From an uncultured Flavobacteriaceae bacterium (GTDB lineage Bacteria > Bacteroidota > Bacteroidia > Flavobacteriales > Flavobacteriaceae), in NCBI GenBank assembly GCA_963973455.1, contig CAXAZF010000009.1, positions 36,984 through 100,983 on the forward strand: DNA of 64,000 bases, read 5' to 3'. Below are positions 8,147-33,772 of this stretch, in pieces. The position numbers and the translations under genes were made by a program. The notes beneath the pieces are model-generated. The model saw only the letters and a list, made by a program, of their open reading frames with translations. It ran no database searches and had not been told where the DNA came from. Position 1 is the stretch's first letter; each line of letters begins with the position of its first letter.

Positions 8147-8362
8147 ATGCAAACCAAAAAAAACAGTTTAATCGAAGCCGTAACAAATACAGCTGTCGGG
8201 TTTGGAATCTCGTTGGTTTCCATCTTTATCATATTGCCATTATTAGGCATTGAAAGCACGCCAACAAAAAATGTAACCATAACCGTGTATTTTACTGTAA
8301 TAAGCATTGTACGCAGCTATGTGTTGCGCAGGATATTTAATAAGAAAACAAACAATAGTTAA
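8147..8362 (+). CDS. small 2-TM phage membrane protein (DUF7220-like)
   Basis: 'QTKKNSLIEAVTNTAVGFGIS...YFTVISIVRSYVLRRIFN' pattern. Confidence 0.7.
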   Translation: MQTKKNSLIEAVTNTAVGFGISLVSIFIILPLLGIESTPTKNVTITVYFTVISIVRSYVLRRIFNKKTNNS

Positions 8363-8421
8363 TAACCAGAGGGCACTACCGCCACCAAGCAAGTATGTGC
8401 CCTCCTAAATCACGAATGATT

Positions 8422-8961
8422 ATGAAAACAAATGTAACAATTTTAAAAATCGCAGTAACCTTGGTGTTGCTGTTGAACGTAGCAAGCCTTTTCGCACAAG
8501 ATCGAATCACGCTTAACATTGCTCAAGACGCCAAATTTTTATTTATAGGCGATGACCGTGGCAACGATGCCGGAACCTTAGACTTACTCTTTAGAAGCGA
8601 ATGGCAAGGCAAACAAACATCCGTTGGTTATATGCTAGTAGCACCCGAGTTTGAATACAGCAACCTTCAAGGCGGTGATTATAGACGGTATTCATTAAAC
8701 CTTGGCTACACCTTAACCTTTGCAGCACCATTTGAGTTTACAGCCACCGCCGGGTATGGTGTAATAGACCGCAAACACGTGGGGGCCGATTTTAGTGCCG
8801 GCGCACAACTGGAAGCTGCATTTGCCATAAGCCCCAATTTTAAACTGTACACCGCCTATCAATTTACAGAGCGTAGTGATCTATACGAATACGGAACCCC
8901 AACCAGAGGCAGTGGCTTTATTGGGATTAAAATAGGATTGTTTAAAACCCGTGGAAGATGA
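8422..8961 (+). CDS. secreted outer-membrane beta-barrel protein (moron candidate)
   Basis: Signal peptide ending SLFA/Q; alternating amphipathic strands (YSLNLGYTL, FEFTATAGYGV, FKLYTAYQF, FIGIKIGLF). Confidence 0.7.
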   Translation: MKTNVTILKIAVTLVLLLNVASLFAQDRITLNIAQDAKFLFIGDDRGNDAGTLDLLFRSEWQGKQTSVGYMLVAPEFEYSNLQGGDYRRYSLNLGYTLTFAAPFEFTATAGYGVIDRKHVGADFSAGAQLEAAFAISPNFKLYTAYQFTERSDLYEYGTPTRGSGFIGIKIGLFKTRGR

Positions 8962-18836: not shown

Positions 18837-19163
18837 ATGGAAAAATTTAAAATAGGAAGTGCTGTAGTTTTTGCTCTTGCATCTGCTGCAGCTATTGAGC
18901 TCGAAACTTCAGAGAGTAAGTCTGTTGTAACAATTGACTTGGAAGAGGATGCAACATTAGCATTATCAAGTGATGCTTTGCCAAGCCCCGGTGATGAGTT
19001 GATCTTAAAAGTTTCAAGTGATGCCACGGCTCGCGATTTAACATTAGGTACCGGAATTACCGCTCCAGTAATTGCCGGAGTGATCAACAAAACAAAGGTG
19101 CAAAGCTTTGTTTATGATGGTGGCAATTTTATCGCCACTGGCGCACCCGTGCAAATAGACTAA
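18837..19163 (+). CDS. beta-rich virion structural protein (head decoration candidate)
   Basis: Follows capsid; 'RDLTLGTGI...KTKVQSFVYDGGNFI'. Confidence 0.5.
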   Translation: MEKFKIGSAVVFALASAAAIELETSESKSVVTIDLEEDATLALSSDALPSPGDELILKVSSDATARDLTLGTGITAPVIAGVINKTKVQSFVYDGGNFIATGAPVQID

Positions 19164-19227: not shown

Positions 19228-19659
19228 ATGGTTACAAGCAAAAATTGCATAGACAAATGGGGAAGCCCTTCAAACTTTAACGAAGGGCTTTTTATGAAAC
19301 TATGGGATATACCAGATGAAATTAATCAAAGTATTCCAGAGCTTCCAAATCGATTGTATTGCAATGAAAAAATTGTAAAACCATTAGAAAAAGCTTTTCA
19401 GAATATAATAGACCGCTGCTTAACTGACGAAGTAAAAACGTGGGATGGATGTTTTAACATCCGAAAAAAACGTGGTTTAAATAGTTGGTCACTTCATAGC
19501 TGGGGAATTGCAATAGATATCAATGCAGCTTGGAATGGATTAGGCAAAACACCTCAAATGAGCAAAGAACTTGTAAAGTGTTTTACAGATGAAGGTTTTG
19601 AGTGGGGTGGCAATTGGTCAAGAAAAGATGGAATGCATTTTCAATTAAAAAATATATAA
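19228..19659 (+). CDS. endolysin, peptidase M15 family
   Basis: 'R....SWSLHSWGIAIDIN','FEWGGNWSRKDGMHFQ' Zn-peptidase motifs. Confidence 0.88.
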   Translation: MVTSKNCIDKWGSPSNFNEGLFMKLWDIPDEINQSIPELPNRLYCNEKIVKPLEKAFQNIIDRCLTDEVKTWDGCFNIRKKRGLNSWSLHSWGIAIDINAAWNGLGKTPQMSKELVKCFTDEGFEWGGNWSRKDGMHFQLKNI

Positions 19660-20138
19660 TGAAAATAGGGAGTGTTACATTTTTGTTAGTGTTAGTACTG
19701 TTAACCTTGGTTGGCTGTAGGACGGTTAAGCCGACCAAGGAAACGGTGCGCACTGTTAAAGATAGTACCATTACCGAGGTAACGTACCAAAAACGAGATA
19801 CCACTATTATCATTCCTGGAGACACCTTAAAGGTTCGCGTTCCGTTTACTGAAATCACAAAAGAACCCTTTATTAAAAAGTCTGGAAGATCTACTGCAAT
19901 AATTACTCGTAAAGGTGATAGTATCGATGTAGAATGTATTACTGAAGAGTTATTACAAAGATTTGAGATTGTAGATAAAATGATAAAGGAACTACGGTTA
20001 ATACAAGAATCTGAAAAACAAAGAATAGAAATACCCGTGCGGTATATCCCTTGGTGGATTGAAATCCTTGCGTGGATTGGCGGTGCGGCATTAATAGGCT
20101 TAGGAATTGTCTTAGCCTTAAAACTTAAATTCATTTAG
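19659..20138 (+). CDS. unimolecular spanin candidate (lipoprotein with C-terminal TM)
   Basis: ATG 19659; lipobox LVGC; beta-rich middle; C-terminal TM WWIEILAWIGGAALIGLGIVLAL. Confidence 0.7.
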   Translation: MKIGSVTFLLVLVLLTLVGCRTVKPTKETVRTVKDSTITEVTYQKRDTTIIIPGDTLKVRVPFTEITKEPFIKKSGRSTAIITRKGDSIDVECITEELLQRFEIVDKMIKELRLIQESEKQRIEIPVRYIPWWIEILAWIGGAALIGLGIVLALKLKFI

Positions 20139-32838: not shown

Positions 32839-33456
32839 ATGGATAATTGGTTGGAGATTTTACTTTCAATACTCGGCGGTGGTTCGCTTGTAGGTATATT
32901 GTCTTGGGTTATTTCTTTACGTAAAGACAAACGTGAAGGGATGAGTGCTGTTATCGAGTTATTTAAAGAAGATAATACCCGGTTACGCGATGAATTTAAA
33001 GAGTTGAAAACCGATTTTGATATGCACCGTGAAAATTCAAAAAAACGTGAGCAAGTTAATACTAAGACAATACAAAGCCTTCAGATAAAGCTTAATATTT
33101 TGGAAAGTGCACATCTTGATCTTCCAGTACCGCAATGGCTAAAGGATAAAAATGGGTATATGTTGAGTATTAATTCGGCCTATGAGGAAATTTTCGGGAT
33201 CACAGCTGATGAGTATGTTGGAAAGAAAGACCATGATGTTTGGAAAAAAGGAATAGCTGATGCTTTTTGCAAGCATGATAACATTGTAAAACGAACCCGA
33301 AAGCATATACAGACCCAAGAGAATGTGGAAAATGAATATCATTCCGGCTGTTGGGAAGTGTTGAAATATCCAAGGTATGAAGGTTCTACATTTATAGGAA
33401 TAGGCGGCATAGCTTTTAAATTAATAGAAGGGGGTTGCACCTCTGCAATGACATAA
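32839..33456 (+). CDS. holin-like TM + coiled coil + PAS-domain protein
   Basis: TM WLEILLSILGGGSLVGILSWVISL; heptad coil; PAS 'LPVPQWLKDKNGYMLSINSAYEEIFG....EYVGKKDHDVW....ADAF...D..V...WEVLKYP....IGIGGIA'. Confidence 0.75.
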   Translation: MDNWLEILLSILGGGSLVGILSWVISLRKDKREGMSAVIELFKEDNTRLRDEFKELKTDFDMHRENSKKREQVNTKTIQSLQIKLNILESAHLDLPVPQWLKDKNGYMLSINSAYEEIFGITADEYVGKKDHDVWKKGIADAFCKHDNIVKRTRKHIQTQENVENEYHSGCWEVLKYPRYEGSTFIGIGGIAFKLIEGGCTSAMT

Positions 33457-33458
33457 TT

Positions 33459-33656
33459 ATGAAAACAATAAGCAATTTCTGGCTATTTATAATAGCATCA
33501 ATCGTATTCGTGGCCACAGCGTTACTATTGCAAGATCATGAGCATTGTGGTACTGTATTGATTTTTGAGGGTGTATTGAGCGGCGCAAGAGGCGCAGGCG
33601 AGATATTGAAGACCTATCAAGTAGGGAAAACCAACCCCGAAAGGTTGCGTGTATAA
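33459..33656 (+). CDS. small membrane protein (holin/antiholin candidate), 65 aa
   Basis: TM FWLFIIASIVFVATALLL, second weaker hydrophobic segment, basic tail. Confidence 0.5.
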   Translation: MKTISNFWLFIIASIVFVATALLLQDHEHCGTVLIFEGVLSGARGAGEILKTYQVGKTNPERLRV

Positions 33657-33658
33657 AA

Positions 33659-33763
33659 CCCTCGGCTTACTTACAGTTTCTCACACTAATAAATAACAAA
33701 TCCATCACTGGAACCGAGGGCAATGCCTTTGAAGCCAAAGATGGATTTAATTAGTGTGAGAAA
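33659..33763. promoter_or_regulatory. structured element (long hairpin + pseudoknot) upstream of methylase
   Basis: 14-bp TTTCTCACACTAAT/ATTAGTGTGAGAAA, 9-bp AAATCCATC/GATGGATTT, 7-bp CCCTCGG/CCGAGGG. Confidence 0.7.
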
Positions 33764-33772
33764 TACAAATAT

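Follow-up and report, generated by a model that had tools for sequence, protein, structure and literature searches.

A membrane-anchored PAS protein conserved beside phage lysis genes in Bacteroidota, a candidate sensor-bearing holin or lysis regulator

Holins are viewed as autonomous molecular clocks, and, outside the lysis inhibition of T4, we know of almost no lysis protein with a dedicated signal-receiving domain. Could such a protein be encoded by a Mu-like prophage of an uncultured Flavobacteriaceae bacterium (GenBank assembly GCA_963973455.1, contig CAXAZF010000009.1, positions 36,984 to 100,983; "the window" denotes this whole stretch of 64,000 nucleotides)? The prophage carries a gene for a 205-residue protein in which a membrane helix is joined through a long coil to a PAS domain, followed at once by a gene for a 65-residue membrane protein, and a first-pass annotation had proposed that these two are the displaced holin and antiholin of an endolysin–spanin pair elsewhere in the window. 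Here, we describe a family of such proteins whose genes recur directly upstream of peptidoglycan hydrolases of seven families. Its members, as read from gene context, are very probably lysis-cassette proteins, and our preferred reading—one we hold with slightly better than even confidence—is that the 205-residue protein is the hole-forming or co-holin component of the prophage lysis system. What would then be new is the fusion of a sensor domain to a lysis protein of the holin class, a PAS domain having been added to the plan of the LysF1b-like proteins of mycobacteriophages.

Both open reading frames (ORFs) are present as first described (Table 1), each opening with ATG and separated by 2 nt. 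The larger one begins 2 nt past the stop codon of the preceding tail-module ORF, from which we infer that the gene is part of the late operon and expressed late. Its product has a single hydrophobic stretch, at about residues 5–27, which contains GGG and is followed by RKDKRE. In an AlphaFold2 model based on a 22-sequence alignment (mean predicted local distance difference test score, pLDDT, 80.9), residues 32–93 form one continuous helix, a putative dimeric coiled coil, and residues 99–194 form a five-stranded PAS fold with pLDDT values of 91–96. Pfam searches found no kinase, helix-turn-helix (HTH), GGDEF, or other output domain down to E = 1, so that ORF check, Pfam, and model agree with the order first reported, namely a transmembrane (TM) helix, a coil of roughly 60 residues, and a PAS domain with no output domain. 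No Pfam holin family matched the protein at E ≤ 1; at 205 residues it lies at the upper end of the holin size range, and it is holin-like in having one transmembrane domain (TMD; residues 5–27).

Pfam, the structural model, and Foldseek all confirm a genuine PAS fold at the C-terminus, as the first-pass annotation had claimed. PAS_4 matched residues 96–181 (E = 6.1e-10; 39.7 bits against a gathering score of 23.1), a weaker match to Pfam PAS (PF00989; E = 8e-6) was likewise above threshold, and NCBIfam TIGR00229 (sensory_box) scored 25.4 against a cut-off of 22.9; a PDB-sequence profile search and NCBIfam both agree with the assignment. When the model was compared with the PDB using Foldseek, the best 24 of the listed matches were all PAS or LOV domains, with target TM-scores of 0.6–0.78. 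The top match of the PAS domain was BvgS (6zj8; E = 1e-7, 24% identity), and further matches included CPS_1291, phage VqmA-DPO (7dwm), a Brucella LOV domain, FixL, NifL, and Aer. NCBIfam also returned a local match to the leucine-zipper and PAS part of ArcB (E = 8e-7). In the family alignment, the PAS core displayed no cofactor signature—no LOV cysteine motif, no conserved cysteine, and no conserved haem histidine. Redox cysteines like those of ArcB were considered and set aside: Cys144 and Cys171 of the window protein lack conservation across the family. Six polar residues of the domain are invariant (K102, D131, D147, E161, K176, and R179) and would fit a pocket or an interface.

A word-seeded search recovered 15 relatives of 190–211 residues, and a hidden Markov model search of 1.84 billion cluster representatives recovered 366 clusters at E ≤ 1e-30. 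Nearly all of these clusters comprise proteins of 190–240 residues with a match spanning the whole profile; the remainder are multi-PAS proteins of 550–2,460 residues, which raises the possibility that the phage domain originated in sensor proteins of the host. The gene is present in single copy in its own genome, the family occurs in one of 401 sampled genomes of the class, and a scan of species-representative genomes yielded a single further prophage copy, in Maribacter. Set beside hundreds of metagenomic clusters, these counts point to a phage gene and to a large, uncharacterised family of phage proteins of about 200 residues. Conservation, read from alignments of 22 and of 103 members, peaks in the block ESAHxDLPxPxWLKD at the junction of coil and PAS domain; DNxRLR is conserved in the coil and GKxDxDVW, ND, KYPR, and IGIGGIA within the PAS domain. 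The motif lGGG is retained family-wide within the TM helix, which suggests that this helix is more than a passive anchor. A literature search for PAS domains in lysis cassettes, in holins, or in Cellulophaga phages returned nothing relevant.

The evidence for a role in lysis comes from the neighbourhoods of these genes. Loci were gathered from phage GenBank records, from Logan, ENA, and JGI contigs, and from IMG/VR, GTDB genomes, and JGI metagenomes, and were reduced to 31 whose PAS proteins are less than 80% mutually identical. The gene immediately downstream of the PAS gene (+1) encodes a peptidoglycan hydrolase in 12 of the 31, drawn from seven hydrolase families (Table 1), and a hydrolase lies no more than three genes away in 16. 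For a genome of 50–100 genes with one lysin, adjacency on a given side would be expected by chance in 1–2% of cases, and 12 of about 30 would be far above that level. Because the lysin family changes from locus to locus, this pattern argues that the adjacency has been selected and not merely inherited, which would be the classical signature of a holin-class gene. Spanin-like genes, whose products combine a lipobox with a TM helix at the C-terminus, follow in L004, L034, L038, L051, the Chryseobacterium jumbo phage MA9V-2, and the window. In five cassettes (L004, L034, L051, L025, and that of the crAss-like Cellulophaga phage phi14:2), the set consists of PAS protein, lysin, and spanin-like protein with no other adjoining TM protein, and the PAS protein would thus fill the holin slot. 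The PAS protein of phi14:2 bears no virion annotation from tandem mass spectrometry; several of its neighbours do.

Some of the lysin assignments in these loci merit separate description. DUF5675, which has been grouped structurally with C82 peptidase lysins (2026 preprint), repeatedly occupies the endolysin slot (L019 649–1257, L040 4130–4546, L072 5397–5816, and others), either downstream of the PAS gene or with the capsid gene and a gene for a 108-residue protein ahead of it and spanin-like genes behind; it fills the lysin slot in L072–L074 as well. This recurrence lends independent contextual support to a putative lysin role for DUF5675. In L006, a WDGH-domain protein (PF25311; E = 3e-29) is encoded at 1535–1930, directly 3' of the PAS gene and in the usual lysin position. 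L010 (7627–8523) joins an Amidase_2 endolysin and a unimolecular-spanin (u-spanin)-like protein in one reading frame of 298 residues—either a lysin–spanin fusion or a nested in-frame start—and its u-spanin-like part has the lipobox LFIVGCC and a C-terminal TM helix homologous to that of the window. The u-spanin architecture recurs in the Bacteroidota phage cassettes of L004, L034, L038, L051, and MA9V-2.

In the window itself, the PAS gene follows the tail-fibre genes and is penultimate in the late operon, an arrangement shared with L008 and L009. A comparison with L004 and L010, which are fragments of Mu-like phages (Portal_Mu, Mu_F, gp36), indicates how this may have come about. Their gene order is protease, capsid, PAS protein, lysin, u-spanin-like protein, and tail genes, and the window is 66%, 36%, and 52% identical to L004 in the lysin, the u-spanin-like protein, and the PAS protein, respectively. 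The synteny of L004 (major capsid protein, PAS protein, lysin, u-spanin), compared with a window slot between capsid and lysin that holds an ORF of 108 residues in place of the PAS gene, indicates that the gene ancestrally stood just upstream of the endolysin and was displaced to the end of the late operon. The ATG of the window's u-spanin-like gene overlaps the lysin stop codon (TAATG), and the 108-residue ORF is the sole ORF between the capsid gene and the lysin. Its product is not a membrane protein, because the N-terminal hydrophobicity is not conserved in its family; this and its membership in a conserved post-capsid family led us to reject it as a holin, and the absence of a holin adjoining the endolysin–spanin pair, asserted at the outset, was confirmed. 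No other convincing holin came to light in the prophage. One part of the original proposal therefore stood—the gene is very probably a lysis-cassette member that has moved away from the endolysin, given its homologues upstream of seven lysin families and the L004 synteny—and its assignment as holin or antiholin is putative.

Homologues of the 108-residue protein number 38; genes of this family always follow the capsid gene, and in Mu-like prophages related to this one they stand directly behind the gene for the major capsid protein, ahead of the lysin. The protein is beta-rich in appearance, matches no known family, and is probably a soluble capsid decoration or accessory protein. Another membrane protein of the window, a DUF7220 protein at 8147–8362 (71 residues, two TM helices, Pfam E = 3e-29), was also considered as a holin and rejected, as its homologues reside in the replication modules of unrelated phages. 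These homologues were found in 125 phage records, including phages of Pseudomonas, Xanthomonas, Xylella, Ralstonia, Polaribacter, and Vibrio. Two of the records were inspected (Xylella phage Prado and Croceibacter phage P2559Y), and in both the gene lies among replication genes.

We examined membrane topology across 107 family representatives using charge distribution and the positive-inside rule. The TM helix begins near residue 7, its N-terminal flank carries a mean of 0.36 lysine or arginine residues and a net charge of -0.8, and the ten residues after it carry 2.7 lysines or arginines; the C-terminal side is the more basic in 91% of members. The protein is accordingly predicted to lie N-out/C-in, which would place coil and PAS domain in the cytoplasm, consistent with the fact that its closest PAS relatives are all cytoplasmic sensors.

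Under our preferred reading, the 205-residue protein would insert into the inner membrane by its one Gly-rich TM helix with a short acidic N-terminus outside, and the PAS domain and the long coiled coil before it, which is probably dimeric, would remain on the cytoplasmic side. In the late phase of infection the protein would build up, and association of its TM helices by way of the conserved GGG face, with or without a small protein such as the 65-residue one, would permeabilise the membrane; the signal-less M15 endolysin would then reach the murein and the u-spanin-like protein would finish the outer membrane. The invariant ESAHxDLPxPxWLKD junction would tie the PAS domain rigidly to the coil, and this domain might set or gate when permeabilisation occurs, by means of a ligand, of a partner protein, or of its own state of dimerisation. 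More tentative is the specific proposal that a sensing PAS domain, fused through the rigid coil to a hole-forming holin helix, gates lysis by an intracellular host signal (metabolite, redox, or energy state) in many Bacteroidota phages, whether crAss-like, jumbo, or Mu-like temperate; gating by the PAS domain, a PAS ligand, and a coupling to redox or metabolic state are conjectural parts of this scheme, and we regard it as possible.

Several points weigh against a holin role. The function of family members is read from sequence and context alone, and the topology has the positive-inside rule as its sole basis; we also know of no characterised precedent for a 200-residue holin with a folded cytoplasmic sensor domain. 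The loci, which were found by way of their PAS motif, lack phylogenetic independence, and about 15 of the 31 have no recognisable lysin nearby, some of these being truncated contigs. In the window, the PAS gene lies 13 kb downstream of the lysin, beside accessory genes (D12 methylase). Finally, in about 10 of the 31 loci an extra small TM protein is encoded beside the PAS gene (L015 and L038, with two TMDs and 80–83 residues, L037, L012, L009, and the window), and this could be the real holin, with the PAS protein its regulator.

That last arrangement is the main rival to the holin reading: the PAS protein would be an antiholin or lysis-timing regulator only, binding the hole former through its Gly-rich helix and delaying or licensing triggering according to the state of its PAS domain, and hole formation would fall to a distinct small TM protein (here the 65-residue one, elsewhere neighbours with two or three TMDs or the product of a distant gene). 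The small TM proteins that flank the PAS gene are mutually unrelated, sensor domains would be more natural on regulators than on pore formers, and in the LysF1a/LysF1b system both proteins cooperate. Retention of the small ORF in L069 and L070, beside an upstream gene that encodes no PAS domain, also fits this reading. The 65-residue protein is itself holin-like, with a confidently modelled TM helix at residues 2–23, a second long helix at 30–58 that is weakly hydrophobic or amphipathic, and a basic C-terminus; it lacks a lipobox. Three homologues of 52–66% identity indicate that its ORF is a real gene, and tblastn searches of phage records with the 65- and 108-residue proteins returned nothing. 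Against a purely regulatory role stand the compact cassettes of L004, L034, L051, and phi14:2, which offer no other TM candidate beside lysin and spanin, and L008, which has the PAS gene and no small ORF. Moreover, antiholins are usually the dispensable, sporadic partner, and here it is the small proteins that are sporadic, an argument weakened by the ascertainment of loci through the PAS motif. On balance, we consider a regulator-only role rather unlikely, if still a contender.

The pairing of the two window genes, presented in the first-pass annotation as that of a partnered module, is not obligate. Besides L008, with its PAS gene alone, L069 and L070 keep the small ORF at the equivalent site, ahead of ThyA and the D12 methylase, with a different gene upstream that encodes no PAS domain; the 65-residue protein is thus best described as a holin-like small protein and a facultative neighbour of the PAS gene. 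The slot in L070 (9613–10011) holds a 131-residue TM and coiled-coil protein that aligns to the PAS family in hhalign with a probability of 89% and E = 2e-6, values to be read with the bias of coiled coils in mind. In L069 (9093–9993), the slot holds a 133-residue TM-helical protein followed by a separate 168-residue protein of coil and cupin-like domain (Cupin_2, E = 2.5e-5, below the gathering score). Since these slots are filled by TM-helical proteins without PAS domains, the constant element is a one-TMD helical membrane protein, to which PAS, and possibly cupin, is an optional cytoplasmic addition. These arrangements suggest that cytoplasmic domains binding small molecules are exchanged as modules on a shared scaffold, the membrane helix.

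Less probable still is that the protein is a non-lysis accessory (moron-type) membrane sensor, serving for instance in superinfection exclusion, host signalling, or control of virion assembly, and merely carried near lysins at the end of the late operon. The gene does sit far from the lysin, between tail-fibre genes and ThyA or D12 methylase, in the window, L008, and L009, the share of loci without a recognisable lysin is about half, and the phage PAS protein VqmA, which acts through transcription, is a precedent for sensing by phages. Adjacency to seven unrelated lysin families, at a frequency well beyond the estimated chance level, speaks against this explanation, as does the want of any DNA-binding or enzymatic output domain, and we hold it to be unlikely. 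A search with PADLOC for membership in a defence system gave just LeoA (E = 5e-4, 17 bits), which is not significant. An Rz-like inner-membrane spanin (i-spanin) subunit, whose N-terminal TM helix would carry a periplasmic coiled coil bridging to the outer membrane, shares the TM and coiled-coil architecture and the lysis-cassette location and drew a weak PHROG match (residues 11–82 to the Rz-like phrog_739, E = 9e-4) at the level expected from coiled-coil composition, but we discarded it as highly improbable given a predicted topology opposite to the required N-in/C-out in those 91% of members, a C-terminal PAS domain of cytoplasmic type, the absence of an adjacent outer-membrane spanin lipoprotein, and the complete u-spanin-like genes already present in the window, L004, L034, L038, and L051.

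Table 1. Features of the window, and peptidoglycan hydrolases encoded near PAS genes at related loci (+ and - numbers give gene positions relative to the PAS gene)
Feature	Locus	Position	Strand	Basis or remark
PAS-protein gene (205-residue TM, coiled-coil, and PAS protein)	Window	32839..33456	+	ORF, Pfam, AlphaFold2, Foldseek, homologues
Gly-rich TM helix, residues 5–27 (LLSILGGGSLVGILSWVISL), then RKDKR	Window	32851..32919	+	Predicted N-out/C-in
Long helix, residues 32–93, with DNxRLR, ending in ESAHxDLPxPxWLKD	Window	32932..33117	+	Putative dimeric coiled coil
PAS domain (PAS_4), residues 96–194	Window	33124..33420	+	Predicted cytoplasmic; nothing after it
65-residue membrane protein	Window	33459..33656	+	ATG, 2 nt after PAS-gene stop
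108-residue ORF	Window	18837..19163		Between capsid gene and lysin
143-residue endolysin, Peptidase_M15_4-like	Window	19228..19659	+	No signal or signal-anchor-release (SAR) sequence
159-residue u-spanin-like protein	Window	19659..20138	+	Lipobox LTLVGC, C-terminal TM helix
GH19	Cellulophaga phage phi14:2 (crAss-like), g078/g077	+1		4-nt overlap
Peptidase_M15_4	L004	+1		
Amidase_2	L010, L051	+1		
phrog_181 endolysin	L003	+1		
Peptidase_M15_3	L015, L038, L050	+1		
Phage_lysozyme (GH24)	L025, L034	+1		One of the two is a Maribacter prophage
DUF5675	L019, L040	+1		
M15_3 lysin	L027	-1		
GH108	Chryseobacterium jumbo phage MA9V-2	-2		PAS gene is gene 249
DUF5675	L033, L045	Within three genes		

Two further features of the window were recorded. 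Between the 65-residue ORF and the start of the D12 methylase gene (33773) lies a long, near-perfect hairpin (33676–33765) with a minimum free energy of -41.8 kcal/mol (z = -7.4 relative to shuffled sequences, none of 200 of which folded as well); it could be a terminator at the operon end, a processing site, or an element of translational control of the methylase, as in Mu com/mom. The stretch 8395–8961 encodes a signal-peptide protein with weak matches to outer-membrane beta-barrels (Phenol_MetA_deg, 23.2 bits, and OMP_b-brl), which may be a small prophage-encoded barrel of the outer membrane.

If PAS-gated holins or antiholins are borne out, Bacteroidota phages would tune the timing of lysis to the physiological state of the host, crAss-like phages—a group with poorly annotated lysis genes—included, and hundreds of phage lysis cassettes would receive a missing annotation. 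The protein would then be a one-protein sensor-effector with a membrane helix as its only output, and hence a new class of holin; a natural, compact switch from sensor to membrane pore would also be of use to synthetic biology. Two culturable systems, Cellulophaga phage phi14:2 (host C. baltica #14) and Chryseobacterium phages MA9V-1/2, make direct tests possible.

Known systems share parts of this plan. In fold and sequence, the PAS domain is closest to those of ArcB, BvgS, and VqmA; ArcB has the same order of membrane anchor, leucine zipper, and PAS domain, and VqmA of phage VP882 shows host signals being sensed by a phage PAS domain. These proteins pass the signal to a kinase or HTH domain, whereas nothing follows the PAS domain of the 205-residue protein and the TM helix is its sole other functional element; the redox cysteines of ArcB, moreover, are not conserved in the PAS family. 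The class III holin T of T4, whose antiholins are RI and RIII, has about 200 residues, one TMD, and a large globular domain that receives the lysis-inhibition signal, and so illustrates that a holin can carry a signal-receiving domain. T is oriented N-in/C-out, however, and its domain is periplasmic, binds the protein RI, and is not a PAS domain; we found no sequence similarity between the two, as judged by Pfam holin families at E ≤ 1. In its active form, the pinholin S21-68 of phage 21 has one TMD in the membrane, N-out/C-in, whose glycine-zipper (GxxxG-type) packing drives oligomerisation. It resembles the PAS protein in the orientation predicted for the latter, and the 65-residue protein in being small with a basic cytoplasmic C-terminus, but pinholins pair with SAR endolysins, whereas the lysins beside the PAS family have neither SAR nor signal sequences and would thus need large holes.

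The most extensive likeness is to LysF1b of mycobacteriophages (Girr gp35 and NormanBulbieJr gp33), which has one N-terminal TMD predicted N-out/C-in, basic residues after it, and a cytoplasmic tail that is extended, helical, and charged; it frequently occurs together with a 2-TMD protein, and deletion of its gene causes severe lysis defects (PMC13056207). LysF1b-like proteins have 92–150 residues and no recognisable domain (PMC13056207). The PAS family has the features that mark this class, which is defined by architecture and not by homology: a single N-terminal TMD, predicted N-out/C-in, with a basic cluster after it, a helical cytoplasmic domain, a place in the lysis cassette, and often a small 2-TMD neighbour. 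It differs in lacking detectable sequence homology to LysF1b, in its Gram-negative Bacteroidota hosts, and in the PAS domain added at its C-terminus; the PAS-less protein of 131 residues that occupies the PAS slot in L070 fits the description of LysF1b closely.

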